Source: Candidatus Binataceae bacterium (GTDB lineage Bacteria > Desulfobacterota > Binatia > Binatales > Binataceae). Taken from it: a stretch of DNA of 64,000 nucleotides. The stretch spans positions 126,858 through 190,857 of the forward strand of contig DATGLK010000010.1 in assembly GCA_035294265.1 (NCBI GenBank), read 5' to 3'. Of this stretch, positions 3,764 through 58,353 are shown in pieces. Both the position numbers and the translations under genes were made by a program. Each line of letters opens with the position of its first letter. The stretch's first letter is position 1. The notes under the pieces are model-generated. The model ran no database searches, was not told the origin of the DNA, and was given only the letters and a program-made list of their open reading frames with translations.

Positions 3764-6700
3764 TCAGGCGTGGGTTTCGAGCACTTCGCGTGGCGCGTGA
3801 TGGCGAAATACGCGCTTGCGCTGGCTGAGTCCCCATAGCCGCGCCTTATCCAGATACAGATAAATGACCGGAGTAGTGTAAAGCGTGAGGGCTTGGCTGA
3901 ACAATAGCCCGCCAACGATCGAGATCCCAAGCGGCCGGCGCAGTTCGGATCCGGTGCCATGTCCCAGCGCCAGCGGCAGGCCGCCGAACAACGCCGCCAG
4001 CGTGGTCATCATGATGGGCCGAAAACGAAGCAGACAAGCTTGGTAAATCGCCGCCTTGGCATCCTTGCCCTCGCTACGTTCGGCCTCCAGGGCGAAGTCG
4101 ATCATGATGATCGCGTTCTTCTTGACGATTCCGATCAGCAGGATGATTCCGATCAACGCGACCACGTTGAGATCATTATGAAACAGCAACAGGGCCAGCA
4201 GCGCGCCCACGCCGGCCGAGGGTAGCGTGGAAAGAATCGTAATGGGGTGTACGTAGCTTTCGTACAGGATGCCCAGGGCGATGTATACGCTGATCAGCGC
4301 GGCCAAGATCAGCATCGGCTCGTTACTGAGCGAGGATTGAAAGGCCTGGGCGGTGCCTTGAAAACTGGCAATGACATCTCCGGGCAGATTCAGCCCTTGA
4401 GCAGCCTTATTGATCGCATCGACGGCTTGGCCCAGGGATACCCCTGGGCGCAGGTTGAACGAGATTGTGACCGCGGGAAACTGTCCCTGGTGATTGACCG
4501 CGAGCAAGGTGGAGGTGGGTACATAATGGGTGAAGGCGCTTAACGGAACCTCACCCGCGGTCGCGCTGCGCACGTAAATCTGATTGAGCGAGTCGGGGCG
4601 TTGCCAGAAGCGCGGCGCGACCTCCATGATCACGTAGTACTGGTTGAGCGCGGTATACATGGTCGAAACCGGGCGCTGACCGAAAGCATCGTAAAGCGCG
4701 TCGTCGATCTGCTGCTGGGTGATTCCCAGCCGGCCGGCGGTGCGCTTGTCCACCACCAACGTGGCGTCCAGGCCGCGGGACTGCTGGTCGCTGTTGACGT
4801 CCATCAGTTGGGGCAGGCGACGCAAGCGCGCCAGCAGCTTGGGCGCGAAAGCGTTGAGTTCGTCCAAGTCGTCACCCTGTATCGTGTATTGATACAAGGC
4901 GTTGCTGAGCCGGCCGCCTACGGTGAGATCCTGGGCCGGCCGCATATAGAAGGCACCGCCGGCGAAATGCGTCAGCTTGCGGCGAATGCGGCCCATGATC
5001 TGCTCCAAGGTAGCATGATCGCGTCTGCGCTCGATGGGCTTGAGGGTAATAAACATGCGTGCCACGTTGGTAGATCCGGCCGAGGCACCAGCCCAACCGT
5101 TGACATGCTCGACCGCGGGATCGGTTTTAATTACGTTGATCACCTTGGTCATGGTTTTGCTCAAGGCCTGGAAGGAGGTGTCCTGATCGGCCTGCAGGAC
5201 GCCGATGATGCGGCCTGTATCCTGAAGTGGGAAAAAGCCCTTGGGGATGATGTAAAACAGGTAAATGTTGAAGGCCAGGGTAGCGATGGCTACCACCAGA
5301 ATTTGACGCGGGTGGCCCAATACCCAACTCAGGCTGCGGTCGTAACCGCGCAGCACGGCCTTGAAGCCGCGCTCGCTGAGTTGATAAAGCCGGCCGTGAC
5401 GCTGCTGGCCAGGGGCGCGCAGGAGATGCGCGCACATCATGGGCGTGGCCGTCAGCGAGATAACCATCGAAAGCAAGATCGCAACTGACAGGGTAACCGC
5501 GAACTCCCGAAAGAGCCGGCCGACAATCCCGCCCATCAGGAGGATGGGGATGAAGACCGCGCACAGCGAGATGCTGATCGAGAAAACGGTAAAGCCGATA
5601 TTGCGCGCTCCCAGTAACGCCGCCTGCATAGGCCGGTACCCGTCTTCGAGGTAACGATTGATGTTCTCGACCACCACGATCGCATCATCGACCACAAAGC
5701 CGGTGGCGATGGTCAGTGCCATCAGTGACAGGTTGTCCAAGCTGTAACCCAGCAGGTACATCACGGCAAAGGTGGCGGTTAGCGAAACGGGGACCACGAT
5801 CCCAGGAATCACGGTGGCGCGCAGGCTGCGCAGAAACAGGAATACCACCAACACCACCAACATCACCGCGATGATCAGAGTGCGCTCGGTATCGCGTACC
5901 GACGCCCGGATGGTAGTGGTGCGATCGAGCACGATGGTAGTCTTGATCGCGGGTGGGATGACGGCGTCCAGCTGCGGCAGAGCGGCGCGGATCCGATCGA
6001 CGGTTTCGATGATGTTGGCTTGAGGCTGGCGGAAAATGATGATCAAGATGCCGGGTTTGCCGTCGACGATCCCCGCGTTGCGAACGTCCTGAACCGAATC
6101 GACCACCTGGGCTACGTCTGACACTCGCACCGCCGCACCGTTGTGATAAGCGATAATCAACGGTTTGTAGAGGCTGGCACGCATGAGCTGGTCATTGGCC
6201 CCCAACTCGATCGATTCCTGGTTATTGGCTAACTCGCCCTTGGGAATGTTGGCGTTGGCCGCCGCCAAAGCCGCACGGACCTGATCTAGCCCGATGCCAT
6301 AATTAGTTAGCTGGGTCGGATTGAGCTCCACCCGCACCGCCGGCAAGGCACCACCGCCCACGATGACCTGACCCACGCCCTGAATCTGCGACAGCTTCTG
6401 GGCCATGATCGAAGAGGCCAGATCGTAGATCTGGCCGCGCGTAATAGTATCGGAGGTCAACCCCAGCATCATGATCGGCGAATCCGAGGGGTTGACCTTC
6501 CGATAGGTCGGGTTTTGCGGCAGCGTGGTGGGTAACTGGCTACGCGCGGCGTTGATCGCCGCCTCGACCTCGCGCGCGGCCGCGTCGATGTCGCGGCTGA
6601 GATCAAACTGCAACACGATGGTGGTGAAGCCCAGAGTGCTGCTGGAAGTAAGCTCGGTGAGGCCGGCGATGCGGCCGAATTGGCGCTCGAGCGGAGTTGC

Positions 6701-6889
6701 CACCGAGGAGGCCATGGTCTGCGGGCTGGCACCCGGAAGTTGGGCTTGGACCTGGATGGTGGGAAAATCGACTTGGGGAATGGGCGAGACCGGCAGATGG
6801 CGAAAAGCCAACATCCCCACCAGCATCAGGGCAATCACCAGCAGGGTGGTCGCCACCGGCTTGCGAATAAAGGGATCAGAAATTCCCAT
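3764..6889 (-). CDS. mdtC: RND multidrug efflux permease, MdtC-like
   Basis: 1041-aa protein with 12 TM helices and two large periplasmic loops. N-terminus ([64 protein letters not shown]) closely matches the MdtC/AcrB family. Overlaps the mdtB stop by 14 nt. Confidence 0.85.
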
Positions 6890-9800
6890 GCGCCCGCACC
6901 GGGACCAATTCCGGGCGCGCCACCGCGGTACGCGAGCCCGTCAGGCGGCTGGCCAGGCGATCGAAGAACAGGAAAATGACCGGAGTGGTGTACAGCGTAA
7001 GCAACTGGCTGAACATCAGGCCGCCGACGATCACGATGCCCAGGGGGCGGCGCAACTCGGCACCGGTCCCCGAGCCCAGCGCTAGCGGCAACCCGCCCAG
7101 CATCGCCGCCATCGTGGTCATCAGGATCGGCCGAAAGCGCAAAAGGCAGGCCTGAAAAATTGCCTCTCGCGCCTCCTTGCCCTCGCTACGCTGAGCGTCG
7201 AGAGCAAAGTCTATCATCATGATGGCGTTCTTCTCGACTATACCGATGAGCAGGATGACGCCGATAAGCGCGATGATGCTGAAGTGCAGGCCGCATATGA
7301 GCAAGGCCAAGATCGCGCCCACTCCCGCCGACGGCAGCGTGGAGAGGATCGTGATCGGATGGATGTAGCTCTCGTAGAGCACACCCAGAACGATGTAAGT
7401 GGTGATCAAAGCGGCCAGGATCAGCAGTACCTCGTTGGCCAGTGCGGCTTGAAAGGCTTGCGCTGTGCCCTGGAACTGGGCCTCGATACTGGCGGGCATG
7501 CCCAGTTCTTGCTCAGCCTGCTTGATCGCGGTCACCGCGTCACCCAGAGCGTAGCCCGGCGCGGTGTCGAAGGAAATGGTGACCGCAGGAAATTGACCTT
7601 GATGATTGATCACCAAGGGAGCGTTGCTCCGTTCGATGTGGGAGATGGCGCTAAGTGGAACCTCGGTGCCACTGCTGGAGGTCAGATAGATATCACTGAG
7701 GTCCTTGGGAGTGACCTGAAAGCGCGGATCAACCTCCAGCACCGTGTGATACTGGTTGAGCTGAGTAAAAATCGTGGTAACTTCACGCTGGCCGAAGGCA
7801 TCGTACAGAGTATTGTCGATTTCCTGCGGCGTGATTCCCATCCGCGCGGCGGTAGCGCGATCGATGATCAACTCGGCTTTCAACCCGTGATCTTCCTGGT
7901 CACTGGCAACATCACGCAATTGCGGTAGGGTGCGTAGTTTGGCCACCAGCCGCGGCGCCCAACTCTCCAGTTCCTTGGCCTTAGGATCCTCCAGGCTGTA
8001 GTTGTATTCGGTGCGACTGGTCCGATCCTCCACCGTCAGATCCTGGACCGGCTGCATGTACAGAGTGATGCCCTCGATCGCGGCTAGGCGAGGCTGGAGT
8101 CGATCGATCACTTGGCGCACTCCCACCTTGCGCACGTCCAGCGGCTTGAGATTAATCAGGAAGCGGCCGCTGTTGACGGTGGTATTGGTGCCATCGATCC
8201 CGACGAACGAGGTCAGGCTCTCGACCGCCGGATCCTGTAGTATCACCCGCGCTAACTCCTGCTGGCGCTCCACCATGGCGGGAAACGAGATGGTCTCGGG
8301 CGCCTCGGAAATCCCCTGAATTACGCCGGTGTCCTGAACCGGGAAAAAGCCCTTGGGCACGATCATGAATAGCGCGATGGTCAGGGCCAGGGTGGCCAGC
8401 GCCACCAGCAGGGTCGCGGTCTGATGTCCCAGCACCCATTCCAGGCTGCGCCCGTAGGCGGCGATGGTGGCCTTGAACCAGCGCTCGGAAGCGCGGAAGA
8501 GCCGGCCCTGCCGCTCGGGCGGAGTGTGGTGAAGCAATTTGGCGCACATGGTCGGAGTTAGGGTCAGCGAAACCACGGCTGAGACCAGGATGGTGACGCT
8601 CAGGGTAATGGCAAACTCGCGGAACAGGCGACCCACGATATCGCCCATGAACAACAGCGGAATCAGCACCGCGATCAGCGAGACGGTCAAGGACAGAATA
8701 GTAAAGCCGATCTGCTCCGAGCCCTTGAGCGCAGCCTCCAGCGGTCGCATCCCATCCTCGATATAGCGCGCGATGTTTTCGATCATCACAATCGCGTCGT
8801 CGACCACGAATCCGGTGGAAATGGTCAGCGCCATCAAGGTCAAGTTGTTGAGCGAAAAGCCGAACAAATACATCGCGCCGAAGGTACCCACCAGTGACAG
8901 TGGCACCGCTACGCTGGGTATCACGGTGGCCGACAGGGTGCGCAAAAACAGGAAGATAACCATCACGACCAGGGCCACGCACATCATCAATTCGAATTCA
9001 ACATCGCGTACCGAGGCCCGGATCGTGGTGGTGCGGTCGGTCAGCACTGCTACCTTGACCGAAGAGGGCAGCGAAGCTTGCAATTGTGGCAGTAGTTTCT
9101 TGATGCGGTCGGCGACCGCGATGATATTGGCGCCGGGCTGGCGCTTGATGTTTAGAATGATCGCCGGGGTAGTGTTCACCCAGGCCGCCTGCTTGATGTT
9201 TTCGGCGCTATCGACCACCCGCGCCACGTCGGAGAGTTGCACCGGGTTGCCGTTGCGGTAAGCCACGATCAGATGGGCGTAGTCGCGGCTGGTCAGGAGC
9301 TGATCGTTGGCGTCGATAGTATAGCCCTGAGCCGGGCCGTCAAAGGCACCCTTGGCCTCGTTGACGTTGCCCGCCACAATCGCGTTGCGCAAATCCTCCA
9401 GACTCAGGCCGTAGGCCGCCAACTGGGTCGGATTGGCCTGGATCCGCACCGCCGGCTTCTGCCCGCCGCTGACGCTGACCATCCCCACCCCGGGAAGCTG
9501 GGCTATTTTCTGGGCGAAGCGCGTGTCGGCCAAATCCTCCACCTTGGCCAGCGGCAGGTGTTGCGAGGTCAGGGCCAGGGCGAGGATTGGCGCGTCGGCG
9601 GGGTTGACTTTGCTGTAAACTGGCGGGGTCGGCAGATCGGGCGGCAAGTAGGTCGCGGCCGCGTTGATGGCGGCCTGGACCTCCTGCTCGGCCACGTCAA
9701 TGTTGAGATCGAGCGCGAATTGCAGGGTGATGACGGAGCTGCCAAAGGAGCTGTTGGAGGTCATCTGGTTGAGGCCCGGGACCTGCCCGAACTGCCGCTC

Positions 9801-10001
9801 CAGCGGCGCCGTGACGTAAGAGGCCATCACGTCAGGGCTAGCTCCGGGGTAGAAGGTCATCACCTGGATGGTGGGATAATCCACCTCAGGTAGGGCCGAG
9901 ACCGGCAGCTCGCGGTAAGCAAATAGGCCCGCAATCAGCAGACCCACCATCAGCAGTGAAGTCGCTACCGGGCGCAGAATAAAGGGGCGCGACGGACTCA
10001 T
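6876..10001 (-). CDS. mdtB: RND multidrug efflux permease, MdtB-like
   Basis: 1041-aa protein. N-terminus ([67 protein letters not shown]) is near-canonical MdtB. The stop abuts the mdtA start. Confidence 0.85.
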
Positions 10002-10007
10002 CGTGCC

Positions 10008-11399
10008 TCATGCACCGTGATGATGGCCACCCCCACGACGGTGCGAACCACCCTGCCAATTGCCTGCCGCGGGCGCGTTCCCACCGAGGGCGCCCCCCGG
10101 CGTTTGCGCGGCGAAGTTGGGGCTGCTCGCTGGGCTCGTGACTTTCGCCATCTGCACGTTGACTTTGGCCCCGGGATAGAGCCGGTCGAGATTTCCGGTA
10201 ACCACTAGCGAAGCGGCGGGCGGACCACTGCTGGCAGCGGTAAAGTCGCCCTGAGTTCCCAACACCTTGATGGTGACAACCTGGGCGGTTTTTTGCGGCG
10301 TCACTACATAAACGAAAGCGCCCTGAGAACCATGCTGCACCGCCGCCGAGGGTATCAGCAGGACATCCTGATGAGTGGCGACCAGGAGACGGACGTTAAC
10401 GAACTGATCGGGAAACAATTCATTGTGAGTATTGGCGAAGCGCGCCTTGAGCCGAATCGTGCCGGTCGTCTGATCGATCTGGTTATCCAAGGTGAGCAAT
10501 TCGCCGTCGGCCAACTTGGTCGTGAAGTCGCGATCCCAGGCCTCCACCGGCAGCGTCTCGCCCTGGCGCAGATCGCTCAGGACTTTGGGCAGGTCATCTT
10601 CGGGAATATTGAAGAGCACCGCAATCGGCTGCAATTGAGTAATGACCGCCAGGCCCTGAGTATCAGTGGCATGAATGATGTTGCCAGGGTCGATCAGGCG
10701 CAAGCCGATGCGCCCGGTCAGCGGCGCGGTAATTCGGCTGTACAGCAGATTGACCTGCGCGTTGTCCAGCATCGCCTGGTCGGCCAGCACCGTGCCCTGA
10801 TCGGCATCGGCGGTAGCCTGCTGCACATCGAGTTGCTGTTTGGGGATAACGTGACCGGCGTATAGAGCCCGGTCACGCTGCAAATCCAGTTTGGCTTCCG
10901 CCGCCGTGGCCCGGTCGCGCAGCAACTGCCCCTTGGCTTGGTCCACGGCTGCCTGGTACGGACGGGGATCGATTATCGCCAAGAGTTGCCCCGCCTTGAC
11001 CATCTGTCCTTCACGGAACGCCACTCTCATCAATTGGCCGTCCACCCGGCTCTTGACAACCACGGTTTTGAACGGCGTCACAGTACCGATTGCGCTGAGA
11101 TACTGACTGAAGGCTCCCTGCTCAATCGGGCTGGCCTCGACCGCCACCGGCGGTCGACGGCGAGTGGCGCTAGCCGCTGCCGCCGCATGTTCGGCCTGCG
11201 AACTGGGATAGAGTCGGTAGCCCACCAGCGCCGCCACCAACAGTATCGCCAGCAGCCAGAACCAACGCCAACCACTCTTGGGGGGTTGGGGTGCCGGCTG
11301 CGGCCCGGCGTATCGATTGTGATGGGGCTCCCTGGCCTCGACATTCACGTCCATTACTTGTTTACGCTCCGCTGCGCGAAACCGTTCCCAAATTGGCAA
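10008..11399 (-). CDS. mdtA: RND membrane-fusion (periplasmic adaptor) protein, MdtA-like, with Gly/His-rich C-terminal tail
   Basis: Alignable with E. coli MdtA (SRVDGQL..VKAGQLLA.IDPRPYQ..., ITAPLTGRIGL, AWDR...KLADGELLTLDNQIDQTTGTIRLKARF). One N-terminal TM segment. The start may be the internal Met (MDVNV). Confidence 0.8.
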   Translation of the reverse strand: MPIWERFRAAERKQVMDVNVEAREPHHNRYAGPQPAPQPPKSGWRWFWLLAILLVAALVGYRLYPSSQAEHAAAAASATRRRPPVAVEASPIEQGAFSQYLSAIGTVTPFKTVVVKSRVDGQLMRVAFREGQMVKAGQLLAIIDPRPYQAAVDQAKGQLLRDRATAAEAKLDLQRDRALYAGHVIPKQQLDVQQATADADQGTVLADQAMLDNAQVNLLYSRITAPLTGRIGLRLIDPGNIIHATDTQGLAVITQLQPIAVLFNIPEDDLPKVLSDLRQGETLPVEAWDRDFTTKLADGELLTLDNQIDQTTGTIRLKARFANTHNELFPDQFVNVRLLVATHQDVLLIPSAAVQHGSQGAFVYVVTPQKTAQVVTIKVLGTQGDFTAASSGPPAASLVVTGNLDRLYPGAKVNVQMAKVTSPASSPNFAAQTPGGALGGNAPAAGNWQGGSHRRGGGHHHGA

Positions 11400-14092: not shown

Positions 14093-14962
14093 TCAAGCCT
14101 CGAGCTTGAGTACCCGCCGCGCGTTTTCCAACATGATCTTGGGGCGAACCTCGTCGCGGAAGGCCGCGGCTTCGAAATCCTTCAGCCAGCGCTCGGGACT
14201 GATGACCGGAAAGTCCGAACCGAACATCACTTTGTTCTGCAGCAGGGTGTTGGCGTACTGGATGAGCGCGGGCGAAAAATATTTGGGCGACCATCCCGAC
14301 AGATCGATGAAGACGTTGGATTTATGCAAGCAGATGGAGAGCATCTCGTCCTGCCAGGGCCATGAGGGATGGGCTCCGATAATGGTAAGGGTGGGAAAAT
14401 CAGCCGCCACGTCATCCAGATGAATGGGCTGGGCGTACTTCAGCTTGAGCCCAGTCCCACCCGGACCGCCTGAACCCACGCCGGTGTGGCCGGTATGAAA
14501 GACCACCGGCACACCCAATTCCGCCGCCTTGGCCCACAGCGGGTAAAAGGCCTGATCGTCGGGGAAAAAGGCTTGAGTGATGGGGTGGAGCTTAAGCCCG
14601 CGCAGCCCTAGCTCCTTGACCGAACGCTCCAGCTCCTGCACCGCCAACTTGCCCTTGTGCGGATCGACACTGGCCCAGCCGATGAACACATCGGGATAGC
14701 GACGCTGGATGTCGGCCACATAATCGTTGCCGTCAAATGGCACGCCCGAGACGGTTTCCGCGTCCACGCTAAAGGTAACCGCCAACAAATCCATGCGCCG
14801 ATATAAATCGGCCATTTCTTCGATGGTGCTGCTCTGGATGGTGCTTTGAAAGTAACGCGCCATCTGCTGGCCGCTAGCGGAAACCGCCAGGCCCGGGCGG
14901 CGCGGCACGTGAGTATGAACGTCGATCCCGCAAATGTTTCGGCCCTGATAGCTGAAGCTCAT
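14093..14962 (-). CDS. Amidohydrolase-2 family (TIM-barrel metal-dependent hydrolase/decarboxylase)
   Basis: Metal-ligand pattern (GIDVHTH ... HTGHTG ... GSDFP). Start set at the ATG preceded by GGAGGA (mRNA ggaggagcatgctATG) rather than the upstream GTG of the longest ORF. Confidence 0.7.
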   Translation of the reverse strand: MSFSYQGRNICGIDVHTHVPRRPGLAVSASGQQMARYFQSTIQSSTIEEMADLYRRMDLLAVTFSVDAETVSGVPFDGNDYVADIQRRYPDVFIGWASVDPHKGKLAVQELERSVKELGLRGLKLHPITQAFFPDDQAFYPLWAKAAELGVPVVFHTGHTGVGSGGPGGTGLKLKYAQPIHLDDVAADFPTLTIIGAHPSWPWQDEMLSICLHKSNVFIDLSGWSPKYFSPALIQYANTLLQNKVMFGSDFPVISPERWLKDFEAAAFRDEVRPKIMLENARRVLKLEA

Positions 14963-15180
14963 AGCATGCTCCTCCAAATCCCGCACCGGCCAATCTTGAC
15001 GGCTCGCCGCATCTCAACGCCGCATCGACCGCCTTTAAATCAGGTTTTTCGCTACCCCGCTAGGATCACCATGCCAAACGTGCGGCCGTCAACCCCCTTG
15101 TAGGAGCGCGTACTTCGCCGCAGGCCTTTCACGTTCGTTAGCGGTATTATGAAACTAAGCTGCGAGAGTCGCTGGCGCAT

Positions 15181-16170
15181 ATGCGAAGCGATTTTACAAA
15201 TCTGACACGCCGGCGATTCCTAATCGCGACCGCCGGCATCCTGAGTTGGGGCTTTCCGGTGCCGGTCAGTGCCGGCTACGGCGGAATCACGCCCAATGCT
15301 CAATTCTACGTGACCACTTACGCGGTCACCCCGCGCGTGGACCCACAAAGCTGGCGCCTGCGTATCGGCGGTCTGGTGAAGCAGCCGCTGGCGCTGGATT
15401 TTTTCAGCCTGCAACAGCTTCCCCACGTGCGCCAAGAGATGACCCTGGAATGTATAGGCAATCCGCCTAACGGCAGTTTGATCGGGAATGCCTGGTGGGA
15501 AGGAACCAATCTAGCCGCGCTGTTGGAACGTGTCGGCATCAAGCGCCAGGCGGTCTATGCCGTCCTGCGCGCGGCCGATGGGTACTCTACCGGAATTGCG
15601 CTGGATGAGCTTCTACGCAAACAAAACTTCATCGCCTATCGAATGAACGGCGTTCCGCTGCCGGCCGCGCACGGTTACCCGGCACGCATATTCATCCCCG
15701 GCAAATTCGGCATGAAACAGCCCAAGTGGCTGACCGAGATCGAGCTGGTCGATCGACCGTACCTCGGCTATTGGGAGAAGCGCGGCTGGAGCAACAGCGC
15801 TTGGCGCAAACTCAACAGCGGTTTTTTCTACCCACCCACCGCCGCCGATGCATCCTTAATCACGCGACTGACCCAGCCCCATCGAGTCCGCACTCCGGTC
15901 GAATTGTCCGGGTGGGCGATCAACGGACCCGCAGGCGTGCGCCGTGTCGAGGTTCGAGCCGCAGGCGCAAGCTGGCATCAGGCAACTCTGGTCCGCAACC
16001 ACTCGCCCTACATCTGGACGGTATGGAAATATCGCTTCACGGCAAAGCCGGGGCGCTATGAGATTAGCGTCCGCGCTACCGGAGGCGACGGGGCAGTGCA
16101 ACCCGCAGCTCATCCCGCCGATAACAGCGGCACCGAGGCCCAGGCCCGCATCGTTTTAGACGTGCTCTAA
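15181..16170 (+). CDS. Sulfite-oxidase-family molybdopterin oxidoreductase (YedY/MsrP-like), Tat-exported
   Basis: Twin-arginine signal (TRRRFLIATAG). Moco-binding region (ECIGNPPNGSLIGNAWWEGTNLAALL...YPARIFIPGKFGMKQPKWL). Confidence 0.7.
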   Translation: MRSDFTNLTRRRFLIATAGILSWGFPVPVSAGYGGITPNAQFYVTTYAVTPRVDPQSWRLRIGGLVKQPLALDFFSLQQLPHVRQEMTLECIGNPPNGSLIGNAWWEGTNLAALLERVGIKRQAVYAVLRAADGYSTGIALDELLRKQNFIAYRMNGVPLPAAHGYPARIFIPGKFGMKQPKWLTEIELVDRPYLGYWEKRGWSNSAWRKLNSGFFYPPTAADASLITRLTQPHRVRTPVELSGWAINGPAGVRRVEVRAAGASWHQATLVRNHSPYIWTVWKYRFTAKPGRYEISVRATGGDGAVQPAAHPADNSGTEAQARIVLDVL

Positions 16171-16207: not shown

Positions 16208-17461
16208 TTAGACGATCATCGAGGCCGGCGGCGCCAGTGGGTCACATTGGCGCCAGTCGTAACCCTTGGGGTTGCGCAAGGTGACCGCGCGGATTTTGCT
16301 GTAATCGATCTCCTGCTCCTGTCCCAGTGCCGGCTGTCCCGCCATGTGAGCGCGAACTGCCGCCAGCATCATGCGCCGATAGCGAATCAGAGTACTGTCG
16401 GAGGAGCCCAGGTACTCGCGGCTGCGATCGGCGATCGCGCCCGGCGCTTCGGCTACCGCGAAGTCCTCGATATTGAGGCTACGCAGCCCGCTCCAATGGC
16501 CTTCTTTCATGGCCTTGCGATCCTGACCCCAGCGGTTGTCGATTCCGCCCAAGCCACTCGCGACATTGTCGGGATCGTGCGAGTAGCCGCGAATCTGAAA
16601 CAACTCTTCGGGCGTGAGCGGCTTATGCAAATCGAAGCGCCAGTACCAGATCGAGGTCCATTCGTCGTCAATCGGCACGGGAGCCAAGGTCAGGTTGGAC
16701 ACGCTGGAGTCCATCGGCACAAAGGAATAAAACGGGGCAACAACTTCGCGGATCCGAGTGTACACGGTGCCATCGAATAGATCGCGCAAAGCGGCCTCGC
16801 GAAAACCCCAAGGCTGACCGAGGACTTCGTAGGTTGGGCCGTTATTGGCCGCCGCCAGCGGGGTACCCGCCGCCTCCCGTCCAGTGCGTAACCAGTACGA
16901 ATGCAACACGCCGAGATGCGAGGAGTCGATAGTGGTTTCCATCACCTGAAACCAGTTCGAATGAAGGATCCCGCGATAAACATCGATGTGGGAGGGGGGA
17001 AGCAGATTGAACTCGAACCTGGGAAAATTAGGTGGCTGTTCACGACGGCCAAGATAAACCCAAATCGCGCCGCCGGCCTCGCGCACCGGATAATGGCGCA
17101 CCCGCACCTTGGCGGCGAATTCGGCGCGCCGCTCGGGCGGCTCGGAAGGCACTTCCACCACTTTGCCCGAGACGTCGATTTTCCAGCCGTGAAAGATGCA
17201 AGTAAGCGCGTTGTCTTCGTTGCGCGCCAGCGCCAGCGAGGTGCAGCGATGGGGGCAACCTTCGTCGAAGAAACCAACCCGGCCATCGGTCGCACGAAAA
17301 GCGATAAAGTTTTCGCCCAGCAGGCGCACTCGTGCCGGTGCGCCATCGGCCTCAAGCTTGCTGGCGAGCACGGCGGGCATCCAGTACTCGCGCAACATCT
17401 CGCCCATGGGCCGGCCTGCGCCAACCTGGGTGACAAGTTGATTGTCTGCCTGTGTCAACAT
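16208..17461 (-). CDS. Rieske non-heme iron oxygenase alpha subunit, phthalate-dioxygenase (class IA) family, paralog A
   Basis: Rieske motif CPHRCTSL-x-CIFHGW (CXH-X16-CXXH). Mononuclear Fe motif DSSHLGVLH. Start matches the phthalate dioxygenase N-terminus (LREYWMP). GAGGAAG ribosome-binding site. Confidence 0.8.
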   Translation of the reverse strand: MLTQADNQLVTQVGAGRPMGEMLREYWMPAVLASKLEADGAPARVRLLGENFIAFRATDGRVGFFDEGCPHRCTSLALARNEDNALTCIFHGWKIDVSGKVVEVPSEPPERRAEFAAKVRVRHYPVREAGGAIWVYLGRREQPPNFPRFEFNLLPPSHIDVYRGILHSNWFQVMETTIDSSHLGVLHSYWLRTGREAAGTPLAAANNGPTYEVLGQPWGFREAALRDLFDGTVYTRIREVVAPFYSFVPMDSSVSNLTLAPVPIDDEWTSIWYWRFDLHKPLTPEELFQIRGYSHDPDNVASGLGGIDNRWGQDRKAMKEGHWSGLRSLNIEDFAVAEAPGAIADRSREYLGSSDSTLIRYRRMMLAAVRAHMAGQPALGQEQEIDYSKIRAVTLRNPKGYDWRQCDPLAPPASMIV

Positions 17462-17506
17462 CCGATGCTTCCTCGAGGTGGAAACTGTCCCGGGCTAAAG
17501 CGCCGG

Positions 17507-18805
17507 CTAGTCGTTATCCAGCGACTGGGGCGGTTTAAAAGCGTCGATCTCGCGCCAGTCCTCGCCCTGCCGATTGCGCAACGCTATGGCGCGAATCGCG
17601 CCATAGTCGATAGTGCGGTCCAGGCCGCGCGCGGCCTGTCCGCTGGCGTGAGCGCGCACGGCCTCCAACATCATGCGTCGGTAGCGAATCACGGTGCTGT
17701 CAGAAGAGCCCAGATACTCACGGGTGCGATCGGCGATTGGTCCGGTGGACTCGGCCACCGCAAAGTCCTCGTGGCCCAGGGTACTTAGGCCGCTGAAGTG
17801 CCCCTCCTTCATGGCGGCCCGGTCCTGATGCCAAACCTGGTCGCGACCGCCAAGCTCGGCTGCCACGTTGTCCAGCGCCGCCGCCAGTTGCTCGTCATCC
17901 AGCGCCGCCAGCCGCTCAGTGCTCCACGGCCGGTAATTGTTGAGCAGCTCCAGCCGGGTCTGGCGAGTCAGCGGCTTGTTGAGGTCGTACCAGACGTACC
18001 ATTGGGCATGCCATTCGTCGTCGATCGGAATTAACATCACCGTCAGATTGGGTGAAGTATTTTCCATCGCCACAAAAGAATAAAAGGGCATCACCACTTC
18101 GCGGATCCGCGTATAGACCGTGCCGTCGAACAGGTCGCGCAGAGCGGCTTCGCGGAAACCATAAGGCTTCATCACATAATCGAAAGTGGGGCCGGTGTTA
18201 AAGGTTGCCAGCGCATTGCGCCCGCTGCGGCGAAGCCAATACGCGTGCAGCACACCCAAGTGGGAGGAATCGATGGTGGTTTCCATCCCCTGCAGCCAAC
18301 TGGCATGGACCACCGCTCGATGGGCCTGAGAATGGCTGGGCGGCAACTGATTGAACTCGAACTGGGGAAAGCGCGGTGGCTGCTCGTCCTGGCCCAGGTA
18401 AACCCACACCATGCCACCGGCCTCATGGACCGGATAATGGCGCACCCGCACCTTGGCGGCGAATTCGGCGCGCCGCTCAGGCGGCTCGGAAGGCACTTCC
18501 ACCACTTTGCCCGAGACGTCGATTTTCCAGCCGTGAAAGATGCAAGTAAGCGCGTTGTCTTCGTTGCGTGCCAGCGCCAGCGAGGTGCAGCGATGGGGGC
18601 AACCCTCGTCGAACATGCCGACGCGACCGTCGGTGGCGCGGAAGGCGACAAAATTCTCACCCATCAAGCGAACCCGCCGCGGCGCGCCATCAGCCACAAG
18701 CAGCCGCGAATGGACCGCGGGCATCCAAAACTCGCGCATGTAAGCGCCCATCGCGGTATCGCGACCGATGCGCGATAAGAGTTCGTTTTCTTCTCGGGTC
18801 AGCAT
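17507..18805 (-). CDS. Rieske non-heme iron oxygenase alpha subunit, phthalate-dioxygenase family, paralog B
   Basis: Same Rieske and Fe motifs as paralog A. N-terminus MLTREENELLSRIG mirrors the PDO ENELLTRVGPGT signature. Start placed at the ATG after GGGAGGG. Confidence 0.8.
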   Translation of the reverse strand: MLTREENELLSRIGRDTAMGAYMREFWMPAVHSRLLVADGAPRRVRLMGENFVAFRATDGRVGMFDEGCPHRCTSLALARNEDNALTCIFHGWKIDVSGKVVEVPSEPPERRAEFAAKVRVRHYPVHEAGGMVWVYLGQDEQPPRFPQFEFNQLPPSHSQAHRAVVHASWLQGMETTIDSSHLGVLHAYWLRRSGRNALATFNTGPTFDYVMKPYGFREAALRDLFDGTVYTRIREVVMPFYSFVAMENTSPNLTVMLIPIDDEWHAQWYVWYDLNKPLTRQTRLELLNNYRPWSTERLAALDDEQLAAALDNVAAELGGRDQVWHQDRAAMKEGHFSGLSTLGHEDFAVAESTGPIADRTREYLGSSDSTVIRYRRMMLEAVRAHASGQAARGLDRTIDYGAIRAIALRNRQGEDWREIDAFKPPQSLDND

Positions 18806-18897
18806 CTGGCTCCCTCCCACAGATTGTTCACCGAGCCCGCCAAACCCTGTCGGCCCGAGGGCTTAGATGCTCCGGCGCTTGGCAGCGGCAGTTCTGT

Positions 18898-20160
18898 TCA
18901 CTCCGCCCGATGGCGTAAAGCTAGCGTTTCGGGAGGATTGAGCGGATCGATTTCACGCCAGTCAACCCCCTTCTTAGTCCGCACCGTGACCGCGCGAATA
19001 CTGGAGAAATCAACCGTTCCGTCCAGCCCCATCGGTGGCTTGCCAGCCTGATGGTCACGCACGGCTTGCAGCATCATGCGCCGATAGCGAATCAGAGTAC
19101 TGTCGGAGGAACCCAGGTACTCACGGCTGCGATCGATCAGGATGCCCGGGGCCTCGGCGACCGCGAAGTCCTCGAAATTGAGGGTCGCCAGGCCGCTCCA
19201 ATGCCCTTCTTTCATCGCCTTGCGATCCTGGCCCCAGACCTGCTCGCGGCCGGGCATATCTGCCGCGATGTTGCTGGGGTCGGGATACTGGCGATGGTAG
19301 CGCATGAAGTCTTCGGCGATCGGCGCCTCGCTCTGATAGCGAATGTACCACTGCGCGTGCCAGTCGTCATCGATCGGGATTAGGCAGATGGCTAGGCGCG
19401 GCACGAAGGAGTCCATCGGCACGAAGGAATAGAAGGGCGCCACCACCTCGCGAATGCGCATATAAACGCTACCGTCGAACAGATCGCGCGCAGCCACTTC
19501 GCGGAAGCCGTAGGACTTCATCCATTGATCGTACACCGGTCCATTATTGGCGGTGGCCAGCGCGCCGCCGGAGTTGCTGCGGTTCTTAAGCCAATAGGAA
19601 TGCAGCACTCCCAAGTGGGAGGAATCGATAGTAGTCTCCAAGCCCTGCACCCAGTTGCTGTGCACTACCGCGCGATGAATCGCGCAATGGGTGGGAGGCA
19701 GGTTGGTAAATTCAAATTCGGGGAAGGCCGGGGCGGGATCGCGTTTGCCCAGGTATACCCAGACCATGCCGCCACTTTCGTGCACCGGGTAATGGCGCAC
19801 CCGCACCTTGGCGGCAAACTCGGCGCGCCGCTCGGGTGGCTCGGAAGGCACCTCGACCACTTTGCCCGAGACGTCGATCTTCCAGCCGTGAAAGATGCAG
19901 GTAAGCGCGTTGTCTTCGTTACGCGCCAGCGCCAGCGAGGTACAGCGATGGGGACAGCCTTCGTCGAAGAAACCCACGCGGCCGTCAGTGGCGCGAAAAC
20001 AAACGAAGTTCTCGCCCATCAAGCGCACCCGCAGCGGCGCGCCGTCGGCTTCCAGCTGCGAGGTGAGCGCGGCCGGCATCCAATACTCGCGCAACAATTC
20101 GCCCATCGGCGTTCCCACGCCGACTCGACACAGCAATTCGTTGTCTTCACGCGTCAGCAT
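18898..20160 (-). CDS. Rieske non-heme iron oxygenase alpha subunit, phthalate-dioxygenase family, paralog C
   Basis: Same motifs. The longest ORF extends to 20301, but the ATG at 20160 (MLTREDNELL, RBS GTGGAGGA) matches the other paralog starts. Confidence 0.8.
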   Translation of the reverse strand: MLTREDNELLCRVGVGTPMGELLREYWMPAALTSQLEADGAPLRVRLMGENFVCFRATDGRVGFFDEGCPHRCTSLALARNEDNALTCIFHGWKIDVSGKVVEVPSEPPERRAEFAAKVRVRHYPVHESGGMVWVYLGKRDPAPAFPEFEFTNLPPTHCAIHRAVVHSNWVQGLETTIDSSHLGVLHSYWLKNRSNSGGALATANNGPVYDQWMKSYGFREVAARDLFDGSVYMRIREVVAPFYSFVPMDSFVPRLAICLIPIDDDWHAQWYIRYQSEAPIAEDFMRYHRQYPDPSNIAADMPGREQVWGQDRKAMKEGHWSGLATLNFEDFAVAEAPGILIDRSREYLGSSDSTLIRYRRMMLQAVRDHQAGKPPMGLDGTVDFSSIRAVTVRTKKGVDWREIDPLNPPETLALRHRAE

Positions 20161-20246
20161 CGCCAAGTCCTCCACTCGCTGCAGCCCGGAGTATCCGCCG
20201 GGCGCAAAATTCGACGTTTCGCTACATTGGCCGCCTGGCCCTCGCG

Positions 20247-21506
20247 TCAGCCTAAGAAGGGCAATGAGGGGGGCGGATTGAACGGATCGACGTCCTTCCA
20301 ATCCATATCTTTGGGGGCGCGCAGCGTGATCGCGCGAATCTTGCCAAAATCCACGGCTTGCTCGCGATGATACACCGGCTTGCCCTGCTGATGGGCACGG
20401 ACCGCGGCCAGCAGGAGGCGGCGCAAGCGAATCAACGTGCTGTCACTGCTGCCCAAGTACTCACGGGTACGATCCATGATCACGCCCGGGGCCTCACCCA
20501 CCGCGAAGTCTTCATAGTTGAGGGTTTGGAACCCGCTCCAATGCCCTTCCTTCATCGCCGCGCGATCCTGGCCCCAATTGTCTTCGCGATGGCGAAAGTT
20601 GGCGGCGACGTTATCGCGTGTGCCCGTCCCGCCCATCATGCGCAGACGCTGCTCTTCGCTCAGCGGCTTGTCGGGATAAAACCAGATGTACCATTGCCAA
20701 TGCCACTCGTCGTCCACCGGCACCACGATGATGGTCAGATGCGGCATGAAGTGGTCCATCGGCACGAACGAGAAAAAGGGCAGCATCACTTCACGGATGC
20801 GCTGATAAACGGTGCCGTCGAACAGGTCACGCAGAGCCGCCTCGCGGAAGCCGTAGGGTTTGGACAGATATTCGTAGGTTGGGCCGTTATTCATACTGGC
20901 CATCGCGCTGCCCGAGGTGGTGGTCATCTTTTTCAGCCAGTAGGCATGCAACACGCCCAGATGGGAGGAATCGATGGTGGTTTCCAGCCCTTGCAGCCAA
21001 TTGCTGTGCACCAAGGCGGGAAAGGGCTCGACGTTCTCGCGCGCGATGGTGTTGAGCTCGAAATCCAAAAACCGCGGCGGCTGCTCCTCCTTACCCAGAT
21101 AGACCCACACCATGCCGCCCGCCTCGCGCACGGGATAATGGCGCACCCGCACCTTGGCCGCGAATTCGACCCGTCGCTCGGGCGGCTCGGAGGGCACCTC
21201 GACCACTTTGCCCGAGACGTCCATCTTCCAGCCGTGGAAAATACACGTCAGGGCATTGTCTTCATTGCGCGCCAGCGCCAGCGAAGTGCAGCGATGGGGG
21301 CAACCTTCATCGAAGAATCCCACCCGTCCATCGGTGGAACGAAAGGCGACGAAGTTTTCGCCCATCAAGCGTACCCGCCGCGGCGCACCGTCGGCCTCCA
21401 AACTTTCGCTGCGCAACGCCGGCATCCAGAATTCGCGCATGTAGTCGCCCATCGGGCTACCCGGACCGACCCGAACCAGCAACTCATTTTCTTCGTGTGT
21501 GAGCAC
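20247..21506 (-). CDS. Rieske non-heme iron oxygenase alpha subunit, phthalate-dioxygenase family, paralog D (GTG start)
   Basis: Same motifs (MLTHEENELLVRVGPGSPMG). GTG start preceded by GAGGAGGG. First gene of the co-directional array. Confidence 0.8.
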   Translation of the reverse strand: MLTHEENELLVRVGPGSPMGDYMREFWMPALRSESLEADGAPRRVRLMGENFVAFRSTDGRVGFFDEGCPHRCTSLALARNEDNALTCIFHGWKMDVSGKVVEVPSEPPERRVEFAAKVRVRHYPVREAGGMVWVYLGKEEQPPRFLDFELNTIARENVEPFPALVHSNWLQGLETTIDSSHLGVLHAYWLKKMTTTSGSAMASMNNGPTYEYLSKPYGFREAALRDLFDGTVYQRIREVMLPFFSFVPMDHFMPHLTIIVVPVDDEWHWQWYIWFYPDKPLSEEQRLRMMGGTGTRDNVAANFRHREDNWGQDRAAMKEGHWSGFQTLNYEDFAVGEAPGVIMDRTREYLGSSDSTLIRLRRLLLAAVRAHQQGKPVYHREQAVDFGKIRAITLRAPKDMDWKDVDPFNPPPSLPFLG

Positions 21507-21683
21507 GGACTTCCCTCCTCGAAAGGGAGACGGGCCAGCCGCTTTGTACGAGCTGCCTCCCAGGTTGGACCGTCCCTATCAAGCGCCGGCCTAGCGTGGG
21601 AATATCGCCGCCAAACCCATCTAATTGTTTAGCTTCCTGGTCAAACAAATAACTCCGGACGGGGCGAATTACAAGCTCTCGCT

Positions 21684-21713
21684 AAAGCCGTTTTCTACAA
21701 AGCCGTTCTCTAC
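21684..21713. promoter_or_regulatory. Tandem 15-bp direct repeat AAAGCCGTT(T/C)TCTAC x2 in the divergent intergenic region
   Basis: Directly visible: aaagccgttttctac followed by aaagccgttctctac. A third AAGCCGTT core occurs at 21797-21804. Sits in the AT-richer 400-bp region between Rieske paralog D and the beta-propeller gene. Confidence 0.45.
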
Positions 21714-21825
21714 GTCGCCCAGGGCCCGAAAACCACCGCCGAGCGCAGGATCGTTCGGATTGACCCAACCCCGCCGCAGTGGTAGCCGAGCTTTCGAAGC
21801 CGTTCACCGCTATAAGCGTCTAACT

Positions 21826-21846
21826 GGTAAATCGCGTAAATTTACC
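21826..21846. promoter_or_regulatory. Dyad element GGTAAAT-N7-ATTTACC (core palindrome GTAAATTTAC) about 60 bp upstream of the beta-propeller start, flanked by an outer inverted repeat
   Basis: Seen in sequence. The outer inverted repeat is TAGCCGA (21783-21789) and TCGGCTA (21852-21858). A TATAAG -10-like hexamer lies just upstream. Could be a DNA operator or a 5'-UTR RNA structure. Confidence 0.35.
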
Positions 21847-21906
21847 GCAATTCGGCTAGCGCTCGAAGTGCGCATAAACGCTCCGAGCGAGAATCGAGGG
21901 TTTGGA

Positions 21907-23211
21907 ATGAAGATAGTTACTATCATAGCAGTCTCGGCCGCGACGCTGGCCCTGCTGGTGACGAGTCCGTCGGTGGGACGATGGGGGCGCGGACTGGAGG
22001 CGGCTTATGCCCAAAGCGGCAGCGATGCCGACCATCCGGCACCCAGCGCCGGCGGACAACGCCGGCCGGTGCGCCACACCTTGGCCGAACTGGGCTCGCC
22101 GCGCACGGTGTACACGATGCCCGCGCAGTTCACCAAAATTCTTGCCACCATTCCCGGCGGTCCGATAGCGCCCTGCTCCGAGCTGTCCGACCCCTATCCC
22201 GAGTTCAACGGTATCGCGCTGGATCCCAAGGCCGGGATCGTGGTCATGAGCGACACCAATCTGAAAAGCGCGCTGATTTATTCAACCGACGTCAAGGCCA
22301 ACCCCTCGGATCCCGACGTCACGCCGTACAAGGCCTGGGTCAAAGGGCCTGACACCTTTCTTTCCTTCGCCGCGGGTGTGGCAGTCGATCCGGTGCGGCA
22401 CGAATTCTACACTACTGAAAACGACGTCGGTGACGACGTTGCGGCCTTCCCATACAGCGCCAGCGGCGATTACGCCTCGCGGGTGCTAGCCGTGCCTCAC
22501 GGCTCCTACGGAATCGCGATCAGCCAACATTACAAGCAGATTGCGGTGGCGATTCAGCACAACGCCGAGATCATCTTTTATCGCGTCCAAGCCAAGGGCG
22601 CCGACCGGCCCCTGCGCTCAATTCGGGGCCCGCGCACCGGCCTGGCCGATCCGCATGGAGTGGTCTGGGACGAGCCCAATCGCGAAATCTTCGTCTCCAA
22701 CTATGGTAACTGGAACCAGGGCTACTGGGATCCCGATTACATGGGAGGCGGGCACTATTATCCTCCCTCCATTCGAGTCTTTCGTGACGACGATGAGGGC
22801 GACGCCACGCCGGTGCGAGTCATCAGCGGCCCCAAGACTCAATTCAACTGGCCCACTGGAATCGCGGTTGATGACAGCCACGGCGAGCTGTTCGTGGCCA
22901 ACGAGGCGGGCAATCAAGTGCTGGTTTTCCCGCGCAACGCTAACGGCGACGTGGCGCCGATTCGGGTGCTAGGCGGACCGCACACCGCTATTCGCCAGCC
23001 CATGGGGGTAGCTTACGACCCGGTCCACGATCAGATCTGGGTGGCTAACTTCGGCCATAACGCCGAGGTCTTCGATCGCACTCAAGAGGGTGACGTCGAG
23101 CCCCGCAAGATCGTGCGCAACGCGCCCGAGGGCAGCCCGGCAGCGGGCTTCGGCAATCCGATGGCGCTAGGCTACGACTCCAAGCGCGACCAACTGCTGG
23201 TACCCAATTGA
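21907..23211 (+). CDS. Secreted beta-propeller repeat protein (NHL/YVTN-like ~45-aa repeats), N-terminal portion ending at an in-frame TGA
   Basis: ATG after GAGGG. Signal peptide MKIVTIIAVSAATLALLVTSPSVG. Repeated units of the form ..GDVAPIRVLGGPHT...P.GIAVD...ELFVAN.. Confidence 0.6.
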   Translation: MKIVTIIAVSAATLALLVTSPSVGRWGRGLEAAYAQSGSDADHPAPSAGGQRRPVRHTLAELGSPRTVYTMPAQFTKILATIPGGPIAPCSELSDPYPEFNGIALDPKAGIVVMSDTNLKSALIYSTDVKANPSDPDVTPYKAWVKGPDTFLSFAAGVAVDPVRHEFYTTENDVGDDVAAFPYSASGDYASRVLAVPHGSYGIAISQHYKQIAVAIQHNAEIIFYRVQAKGADRPLRSIRGPRTGLADPHGVVWDEPNREIFVSNYGNWNQGYWDPDYMGGGHYYPPSIRVFRDDDEGDATPVRVISGPKTQFNWPTGIAVDDSHGELFVANEAGNQVLVFPRNANGDVAPIRVLGGPHTAIRQPMGVAYDPVHDQIWVANFGHNAEVFDRTQEGDVEPRKIVRNAPEGSPAAGFGNPMALGYDSKRDQLLVPN

Positions 23212-24087
23212 GTGAGTGATCCCCGCATTGCGACGTTTGCCCGGGTGGCAAGCGGCAACATTCCAGCCAAGCGGATCATTGAGGGACAAAACACCAAACT
23301 AACCCGCGTCGCTCACGGGATTACCTATGACCCGGTCCACGATCTGATTATTGCCACGGAACCGCTGGCTGCGTCAATTGTGTTTTTTAGGGGCGGCGCG
23401 CATGGCGATGTGCCGCCGGTGCGGGTAATTCAGGGCAACAAAACGCTGATTCACTCGCCCTACGAACCCTCGGTGGACAATCAACACAACGAGCTGTGGA
23501 TCGCCGATATCACTAGCGGGGCCCTGCGGGTCTATCCGCTGGAGGACAACGGCAACATCGCGCCGCTGCGCAACATCCAGGGACCCAAGACCCAGCTCTT
23601 CAGCATCACTGGAGTGGCAGTCGACCCGGTCCACGATCTGGTAGTGGCAGCCGGGCTAAACCGGCAGTATCGGCCCTGCATTTTCATTTTCCGTCGCACC
23701 GACAACGGTGATGTGGCGCCGCTGCGGGTAATTAGCGGCCCGACCACGGGGCTGGAATACATCTGGCATGTGCAGGTGGCAGGCCAGCGCATTTTCGCTA
23801 CCGCTTCCAACTTCTACTACATCCCACCCTACGATCCGGGTGGCCACGAGCCGCGCAAGGATTGCACCGGACCGCCGCTGCCCTTCCCCGGGCCGCTGGG
23901 CTTTATCGGGGTATGGAACGAGAGCGATAACGGCGACGTGGCGCCGCGGGCGATCATTCGCGGGGCGCAGACCGATTTGCTCCATCCGGTGGGATTAGTG
24001 CTTGATCCCGCTCATGGCCAGGTCTTCGCCAGCGACAGCGTGCGCAACGGCGTGTTCGGCTTTCTGGTCCCCAACTTTTTTAAATAG
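23212..24087 (+). CDS. Beta-propeller repeat protein, C-terminal portion (same frame, continues the repeat register after the TGA at 23209-23211)
   Basis: Immediately downstream of the TGA and in the same frame. Carries the same repeat family (GDVPPVRVIQGNKT..., GNIAPLRNIQGPKTQLFSITGVAVDPVHDLVVA, GDVAPLRVISGPTTG). No own signal peptide and no convincing ribosome-binding site. Likely one gene split by a nonsense codon or sequencing error. Confidence 0.5.
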   Translation: MSDPRIATFARVASGNIPAKRIIEGQNTKLTRVAHGITYDPVHDLIIATEPLAASIVFFRGGAHGDVPPVRVIQGNKTLIHSPYEPSVDNQHNELWIADITSGALRVYPLEDNGNIAPLRNIQGPKTQLFSITGVAVDPVHDLVVAAGLNRQYRPCIFIFRRTDNGDVAPLRVISGPTTGLEYIWHVQVAGQRIFATASNFYYIPPYDPGGHEPRKDCTGPPLPFPGPLGFIGVWNESDNGDVAPRAIIRGAQTDLLHPVGLVLDPAHGQVFASDSVRNGVFGFLVPNFFK

Positions 24088-43094: not shown

Positions 43095-43109
43095 TCTCTC
43101 ATCCGTCCG

Positions 43110-45198: not shown

Positions 45199-45211
45199 CG
45201 CCTTGTCCCCT

Positions 45212-47490: not shown

Positions 47491-47505
47491 CGAGTTCTCT
47501 CCCCG

Positions 47506-56043: not shown

Positions 56044-56198
56044 TTCTGCTTGCCGGCGCGCGCGCTTTTTCTGCATCCAATCCAGTTGGCGCAGCGCTTG
56101 AGAGGGCGCTACTGTAGGCAGAGTTTTCGCTGTCCGCCGCGCGCGGTGGACACAAGCTATTTCTCAATCCACCGCTGACCAAGGAGAGCGAAGGACGC

Positions 56199-57236: not shown

Positions 57237-57338
57237 TCTGGCGCGGGCCGCGGATGCCGACATCCCCGGCCCACCCTTTTTTGCCTCGGCTGGCGACGCG
57301 CATTAGACTGAACGGACCAATATTCCGAGGTGGGCGCC

Positions 57339-58340: not shown

Positions 58341-58353
58341 GGCCGGCCCGCGG

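Follow-up and report, generated by a model that had tools for sequence, protein, structure and literature searches.

The 64,000-nt stretch of the Candidatus Binataceae contig DATGLK010000010.1 analyzed here (hereafter the window) carries an array of four paralogous Rieske oxygenase genes, A, B, C and D, on the minus strand of positions 16208-21506. The original prediction described four co-directional genes for proteins of 417-432 residues with Rieske and iron-site motifs, and open reading frames (ORFs), motifs and Pfam bear this out for 4/4 genes (Table 1). Each gene encodes both a Rieske domain (PF00355, E about 1e-14 to 1e-15 over the four genes; 7e-14 in A) and a LigXa_C domain (PF19301, 110-132 bits against a gathering cutoff of 27, with the profile aligned from position 1 to 285 of 304; E=2e-38 in A). 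Protein A is 100% identical to P0001, a protein from a Candidatus Binataceae metagenome-assembled genome (MAG), and gene B contains a 13-aa insertion in its variable catalytic region. A longer, 467-aa ORF was rejected as gene C, as such an ORF would overlap D. The start codon of D is paralleled in its ortholog P0005, a 419-aa protein that likewise starts with V.

The intergenic gaps along the array measure 45, 92 and 86 nt, and a GGAGG-like ribosome-binding site lies ahead of each of the four genes. A scan for promoters and terminators detected no site in the gaps, with counts at or below the shuffled expectation. The four genes probably form one operon, an arrangement compatible with the absence of promoter- and terminator-like sites between them. 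An independent repeat finder also recovered four copies, with a period of ~1345 nt. The GC content of the window is 0.59-0.65, and the long antisense ORFs found opposite each gene were rejected as real genes and attributed to a composition rich in GC at third codon positions (GC3).

By motif and profile evidence, the four genes are assigned as Rieske non-heme iron oxygenase alpha subunits of the alpha-only type, within the phthalate-dioxygenase/LigXa family. The Rieske motif C-x-H-x(15-17)-C-x-x-H is present in 4/4 proteins as C69-P-H71-R-C...C88-I-F-H91-G-W, as is the iron-site motif D179-S-S-H182-L-G-V-L-H187. The bridging D179 and the Fe ligands H182, H187 and D333 align with D178, H181, H186 and D343 of phthalate dioxygenase (PDO), and the metal ligands (Rieske C69/H71/C88/H91, D179 and H182/H187/D333) are invariant in a 19-sequence alignment. 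The best solved structures, matched over the full length, are RO_CH34 (7FHR, E=3e-69) and PDO_KF1 (7FJL/7V25, E=2e-68; also solved as 7V28). At E about 1e-69, this homology to PDO is enough to settle the fold. The Rieske ligand numbering is that of RO_CH34 (C69/H71/C88/H91), and the bridging Asp, the 2-His-1-Asp iron site and the enlarged catalytic domain are common to PDO_KF1 and the array proteins. As judged from the alignments, all four oxygenases retain intact metal sites in diverged catalytic domains.

Do these oxygenases turn over phthalate? Two arginine residues of PDO_KF1, Arg231 and Arg244, are kept in the array as R226 and R236. In contrast, Arg207 is replaced with Ala and Ser182 with Leu in all four genes, Phe278 is replaced with Ile in A and with Gln in B, C and D, and the trimer-stacking region (residues 285-338) is the most variable part of the array proteins, with insertions and deletions. 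The residues beside the Asp ligand also vary among the four genes (NI, GH, NF and NY). Arg207 is essential for phthalate turnover in PDO, and RO_CH34, which also has neither Arg207 nor Ser182, shows no phthalate turnover (PMC8649396). With these two replacements, and with no adjacent phtB-type reductase gene, which is a further difference from PDO_KF1, the array genes depart from a strict phthalate 4,5-dioxygenase (PhtA/OphA2). A search of NCBIfam gave no equivalog match and assigned no function: its matches were weak and limited to the Rieske domain, and even the highest-scoring, to a sterol demethylase model, reached 65 bits where the cutoff is 600. The JGI label 'phthalate 4,5-dioxygenase' is, on these substitutions, probably wrong for the array genes and for their large family.

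The catalytic-domain family PF19301 is named after LigXa of Sphingobium sp. SYK-6, and the likeness of the array proteins to LigXa stands at this Pfam-family level. LigXa is the oxygenase of the 5,5'-dehydrodivanillate O-demethylase of SYK-6, with ferredoxin LigXc and reductase LigXd as its partners (PMC6874591, PMC12997858). The array differs in that it comprises four tandem copies instead of one and in that no ligZ- or ligY-like genes adjoin it. The substrates can reasonably be taken to be carboxylated aromatic compounds, and we propose that each paralog may act on a different one, possibly derived from lignin.

The four genes are 67-69% identical to each other at the nucleotide level and 65-69% identical at the protein level. 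This similarity is unevenly distributed. Sliding windows and a segment search detected one high-identity block common to the paralogs, at codons 63-129, where the best local segments reach 98.4% over 185 nt for A-B, 93.8% over 193 nt for A-C, 93.3% over 164 nt for B-C, 89.8% over 197 nt for A-D and 95.2% over 62 nt for C-D; for B-D, the segment search gave none over the threshold. The original prediction of blocks of about 185 nt that are 90-97% identical in all four genes was accurate as to length but generous for D, the least similar copy, whose windows in the block are 83-92% identical. The second, C-terminal block that had been noticed mainly between A and C is also real, with 97% identity over 67 nt at codons 361-383. 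Exact runs of at least 17 nt between paralogs occur almost only in codons 63-126, and the longest, between A and B, is 89 nt.

The excess identity extends to synonymous codon choice. Among codons whose residue is shared by the two genes of a pair, codon identity for A-B is 57/61 in the block versus 89/190 elsewhere (Fisher P=5e-12), and for A-C it is 48/61 versus 94/195 (P=2e-5). The pairs with D gain little or nothing over the rest of the gene (C-D 35/59, B-D 37/59 and A-D 42/60 in the block). A Sawyer-type permutation of polymorphic sites, in our own implementation that follows the logic of GENECONV and is not GENECONV itself, yielded global P values of 0.001 for A-B, 0.0002 for the A-C C-terminal tract and 0.0012 for A1-C1, a pair from a sister genome.

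This sister genome, represented by L001, a JGI/ENA contig of about 245 kb, provides a control for the history of the array. It carries a syntenic D1-C1-B1-A1 array with identical gene lengths, the same downstream neighbors and genes that are 86-89% identical to their counterparts at the nucleotide level. Outside the block, 4/4 ortholog pairs are recovered at 100% bootstrap. For each gene pair, orthology is favored by 199-233 informative sites and a grouping by genome by 5-9. Synonymous-site divergence (dS) outside the block is 0.56-0.72 between orthologs and 0.8-2.6, which is saturated, between paralogs. Since flank trees, informative sites and dS all follow orthology, the four genes are old and had already separated before the two species did.

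Inside the block, the picture is reversed. Ortholog pairs are recovered in 0/4 cases, A and B form a clade with 79% bootstrap, and the informative sites for A and B number 3 for orthology versus 5 for genome, a shift relative to the flanks with P=3e-6. Computed per block, dS is not uniform along the genes: within one genome it falls to 0.117 for A-B (2.1 in the rest of the gene), 0.17 for A1-D1 and 0.25 for A1-C1, whereas between orthologs the block values are 0.56 for B-B1, 0.60 for C-C1 and 0.50 for D-D1. The B block differs from A at 6/192 sites versus 20/192 from its ortholog B1 (P=0.004), with which it shares the same codon at 42/60 positions, and the D1 block differs from A1 at 7/192 sites versus 19/192 from D. 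Because paralogs are closer than orthologs in a tract with congruent flanks, gene conversion after speciation accounts for the pattern. The intergenic conversion proposed in the original prediction is therefore real and recent, and by these comparisons it occurred independently in both lineages after the species split.

The cross-comparisons also suggest the direction of exchange. The B block is nearer A1 than B1, and the C1 and D1 blocks are nearer A than C and D, which suggests that the A-type block was the donor in the Rieske block. For the C-terminal tract, where A-C differ at 2/67 sites, A-C1 at 6/67, A-A1 at 9/67 and A1-C1 at 12/67, the direction seems reversed, from C to A. In the resulting scheme, this lineage experienced conversion from A to B, from A to part of C and, over the 67-nt C-terminal tract, from C to A, and the sister lineage conversion from A1 to C1 and from A1 to D1. 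Not every copy took part. The synonymous identity of the D block to B (0.63) and C (0.59) is that of a baseline without conversion of about 0.58, derived from the homolog P0003 (see below), so the original prediction overreached in extending conversion to all four genes. By this measure, D here and B1 in the sister array are essentially unconverted, and the high nucleotide identity of D (~85-90%) arises because the amino-acid sequence of the block is invariant.

What, then, keeps the block constant? The original prediction held that conversion does so, and the comparison with other genomes contradicts this view. The 120 best database homologs include 56 protein clusters whose identity to A is only 47-64% outside the block but 94-100% inside the 63-aa block; in homologs from other phyla at equal overall distance, block identity is 57-84%. 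The loci fetched for this 56-cluster group (L001, L084, L086, L091 and L093) come from several samples and contigs. Because conversion does not homogenize sequences that lie in different genomes, it is not the keeper of the block protein. P0003 provides the clearest case: its block protein is 100% identical to that of A, and its synonymous codon identity to every other copy is 48-63%, which is saturated. Purifying selection alone therefore maintains the block protein. Among the genes compared, dN, the nonsynonymous counterpart of dS, is 0.00-0.02 in the block versus 0.30-0.38 in the rest of the gene. As to the reason for such conservation, the block includes the loop of residues 105-125, where the reductase has been proposed to bind in phthalate dioxygenase (Tarasev 2009, as cited in PMC8649396). 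By this analogy, the label of a reductase/ferredoxin-docking module, given to the block in the original prediction, appears reasonable.

Thus, we propose that the conversion is a by-product of the conservation and not its cause. The 63-residue segment, with the four [2Fe-2S] ligands and the putative donor-docking loop, is under extreme purifying selection across the Binataceae family. The frozen protein would leave this segment as the only part of the gene where paralogs retain exact nucleotide matches of 20-90 nt, a length that, judged from the matches themselves, may suffice for RecA-type homologous pairing. Short non-reciprocal exchanges between tandem copies would therefore recur in the block, wiping out synonymous differences and scrambling orthology there, and the flanks, too divergent to pair, would evolve independently. 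A probable operon with a frozen Rieske block, in which conversion recurs between tandem copies, is in our judgment a likely account of the array as a whole.

A similar pattern is found in an alphaproteobacterial MAG, where a tandem pair (L050 10001-12129) shares the same codons at 83/88 positions in the Rieske part versus ~26/51 in the flanks; the second copy is apparently truncated at 219 aa and may be a pseudogene or reflect a MAG frameshift. Within Binataceae, the family has undergone a very large tandem expansion on another contig (L084 10001-21263, ENA ERZ27279669 k141_394400; also L085), with nine or more Rieske + LigXa_C genes in a row. Two more Rieske oxygenase genes, one of the LigXa_C type and one of the VanA_C type, lie 8 kb upstream of them. 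The closest non-self homolog of A, P0002 (70% identity), is located on L091 2609-13859 next to genes for a RelE toxin, HEPN/AbiU2 and a type IV secretion/relaxase set (VirB8, CagX, TrbI, TraD and TraG), a setting that suggests spread of family members by a conjugative element.

Several observations weigh against recurrent conversion in a frozen block as the full explanation. The donor and recipient calls are based on 6-20 differences per comparison. The nine-gene Binataceae array is only modestly homogenized in the block (0.57-0.77), from which it follows that conversion is episodic and not constant. Between the orthologs A and A1, block dS is 0.22 versus 0.72 in the rest of the gene, which pure neutral conversion does not predict, and identical synonymous codons number 53/62 in the block versus 197/302 in the rest (P=9e-4; window 17085-17269 versus, approximately, L001 12897-13081). 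Synonymous constraint may thus add somewhat to the block signal. Finally, the window comes from a short-read MAG contig with a tandem repeat, in which the merging of assembly bubbles could exaggerate identity.

A more ambitious version of the proposal would assign conversion an active role. In such a hub-and-spoke arrangement, dozens of Binataceae oxygenases would share the frozen 63-residue electron-entry module, fed by one unlinked partner, and conversion would actively keep new duplicates compatible with it as their substrate pockets diverge. We regard this version as possible but doubtful.

Alternatively, the nucleotide sequence of the block could itself be constrained, through mRNA structure, programmed slow codons near the cluster ligands or an overlapping antisense gene. 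The low A-A1 block dS fits this explanation, as do the long antisense ORFs and a block synonymous identity of 0.65 between Binataceae genomes and 0.55 versus alphaproteobacteria, compared with 0.51 at other invariant residues. Codon choice points the same way, with CAT or TAT favored across phyla at H71, H123 and Y124 (17255-17257, 17099-17101 and 17096-17098 in A, with the same in B-D and at loci L004-L083). A scan of genome contigs, which served for the codon baseline and for the reductase census given below, returned homologs of at most 56% identity that are mostly alphaproteobacterial and include no Binataceae. The H71 codon is CAT in 17/17 Binataceae genes and is split into 50 CAT versus 38 CAC in these homologs (GC3 about 0.83), in which H123 is encoded by 27 CAT versus 9 CAC and Y124 by 28 TAT versus 11 TAC. 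In GC-rich genomes such an excess of T-ending codons would not be expected, and it may reflect synonymous selection at particular sites. However, the folding energy of the block is no better than that of shuffled sequences (z = -0.46, -0.65), no Rfam match was found, and the antisense ORFs are expected from GC3-rich codons and extend through the variable regions too. Moreover, synonymous divergence of B-B1, C-C1 and D-D1 is equally fast in the block and outside, P0003 is saturated in the block, and a constraint of this kind cannot produce a grouping of paralogs that is specific to each genome. We thus consider it quite unlikely as an explanation in its own right.

Purifying selection on the protein combined with biased codon usage, with no DNA exchange, is very unlikely for the array as a whole. 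The block protein is indeed invariant across many genomes, and an identical protein with ~58% codon identity would be expected to be ~85% identical at the nucleotide level, which is about the level of D; usage alone predicts a codon identity of 0.46-0.53. However, selection of this type leaves the 57/61 shared codons of A-B unexplained in view of 42/60 for B-B1 and 48-63% for P0003, and it can neither bring paralogs closer than orthologs nor break 4/4 ortholog pairs. The explanation is refuted for A-B, A-C, A1-C1 and A1-D1 and stands only for D and B1.

An assembler that merged or cross-joined near-identical repeat copies could in principle have generated the mosaic, and the contig names of related ENA assemblies indicate MEGAHIT with k=141. 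The longest exact match of 89 nt is nevertheless shorter than this k, which is taken from the related contigs and may not be that of the window, and A and B still differ at 3 sites within the 185-nt tract, with gene order, lengths and reading frames intact. The sister array, found in two samples that differ at 0-3 sites per gene, is a mosaic with other partners, and an assembly artefact is accordingly highly improbable. That the genes are young duplicates with a fast-evolving catalytic domain, so that the block would display the true duplication age, matches the contrast between a dN of 0.30-0.38 in the catalytic domain and near zero in the block but has almost no chance of being correct, given a paralog dS outside the block above that of the orthologs and all four paralogs in the same order before the species split.

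If the block is an electron-entry module, where is the electron donor? Pfam scans of about 50 ORFs across the 64 kb, together with six-frame motif scans, detected no FNR-type reductase and no [2Fe-2S] ferredoxin in the whole window, which upholds the earlier observation that a reductase gene is missing from the vicinity. Only one other Rieske protein is encoded in the window, a subunit of a cytochrome bc-type complex. It belongs to a respiratory cluster on the minus strand of window 41640-48645 (Table 1). Likewise, no redox partner was found within 10 kb of the sister array or of the nine-gene array. A Pyr_redox_2 gene downstream of P0003 (L093 10965-12200) was considered as a ferredoxin reductase and rejected, as the solved structures closest to it are those of type II NADH dehydrogenases (4NWZ, E=8e-29).

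A VanB-like ORF is present within 10 kb at only 1/58 homologous loci, so by this census the absence of a neighboring reductase is unremarkable and usual for the family. In this respect the array resembles LigXa, whose redox partners are not encoded beside the oxygenase gene: the ferredoxin and ferredoxin reductase genes are at unlinked loci (SLG_07770 versus SLG_08500 and SLG_21200; PMC6874591, PMC12997858). The further claim that these enzymes, as Class IA oxygenases, need a PhtB/VanB-type reductase was an assumption, given that LigXa uses a separate ferredoxin and ferredoxin reductase and that the family spans two-component (PDO) and three-component (LigXa) systems. The array enzymes may belong to a two-component (Class IA) or a three-component system. 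We propose that the array oxygenases may draw electrons from one or a few unlinked partners, which would explain the invariant entry module.

The surroundings of the array contain further genes related to aromatic compounds. An aromatic ring-cleavage cluster is located at window 54481-59379, ~35 kb from the array, and two more Amidohydro_2 genes lie elsewhere in the window (Table 1). We take Amidohydro_2 to be the family of LigW and LigY and the LigB-type dioxygenase to belong to the family of LigZ. By family assignment, the four Amidohydro_2 genes and the LigB-type dioxygenase in the window fit aromatic catabolism. A gene for a SorA/SoxC-like molybdopterin oxidoreductase, which bears a twin-arginine signal (TRRRFL), occupies window 15181-16170 on the other strand. 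It is convergent with the array, facing the 3' end of gene A, and this arrangement is kept in the sister genome. Two NHL-repeat protein genes occupy window 21625-24087, between D and a Y-family polymerase gene; the sister contig has a D12-class DNA methyltransferase gene in their place (L001 7566-8375), which indicates that the upstream flank was replaced. Two adjoining 1041-aa RND (AcrB-family) pump genes and one membrane-fusion protein gene at window 3764-11399 follow an MdtABC-like order that is kept in the sister genome.

Table 1. Coordinates of the oxygenase array, its shared tracts and other gene clusters in the window
Feature	Position	Strand	Description
Gene A	16208..17461	-	417 aa; Rieske + LigXa_C alpha subunit (ORF, Pfam); last gene of the array
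Gene B	17507..18805	-	432 aa; ATG at 18805; corresponds to P0008
Gene C	18898..20160	-	420 aa; ATG at 20160; sister ortholog P0004 likewise 420 aa
Gene D	20247..21506	-	419 aa; GTG start; first gene of the array
Rieske block in A	17085..17269	-	codons 65-126; C69, H71, C88, H91 and 105-125 loop; apparent donor
Rieske block in B	18429..18613	-	apparent recipient of A-to-B conversion after the species split
Rieske block in C	19782..19974	-	converted in part; 193 nt, 93.8% to A
Rieske block in D	21121..21317	-	unconverted for the most part, except 62-nt sub-tract common with C
C-D sub-tract	D 21175-21236, C 19829-19890		62 nt, 95.2%
C-terminal conversion tract in A	16364..16430	-	codons 361-383, ...GSSDSTLIRYRRMML...; apparent recipient
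C-terminal conversion tract in C	19069..19135	-	apparent donor
Cytochrome b fused to c-type haem domain	41640-43094	-	respiratory cluster
Rieske subunit	43110-43772	-	respiratory cluster
Dihaem cytochrome c	43640-44542	-	respiratory cluster
COX1	45811-47490	-	respiratory cluster
COX2 fused to cytochrome c	47506-48645	-	respiratory cluster
MFS transporter	54481-56043		ring-cleavage cluster
Amidohydro_2	56199-57236		ring-cleavage cluster
LigB-family extradiol ring-cleavage dioxygenase	57330-58340		ring-cleavage cluster
Amidohydro_2	58354-59379	-	ring-cleavage cluster
Two further Amidohydro_2 genes	14093-14986 and 27953-29137		

Gene conversion and concerted evolution are known from bacterial multigene families, such as tufA/tufB and the rRNA operons. 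The array resembles these cases in that short tracts are homogenized non-reciprocally, paralogs become closer than orthologs, and the bounds of exchange are set by divergence. It differs in that the tract is confined to one sub-domain of otherwise saturated genes and in that several overlapping events with different donors are found in two sister lineages. A literature search returned no report of gene conversion in Rieske oxygenase arrays and nothing directly relevant on Binatota and Rieske proteins. Both the process and the enzyme family are known, and the array is a new example in a poorly known phylum.

The array illustrates cleanly, and with a sister species as a control, how selection on one domain steers recombination in nature: the only part of these old paralogs still able to exchange DNA is the part frozen by selection. 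Two practical warnings follow for work on this family. The JGI annotation as phthalate 4,5-dioxygenase is probably misleading across its many members, and conversion can distort phylogenies of Rieske oxygenases that are inferred from the Rieske domain. For the uncultured Binataceae, the array is a sign of an aromatic-oxygenase repertoire that is unusually large and diversifying. Its members probably share an electron donor, and this donor would have to be identified before these oxygenases are expressed and assayed.

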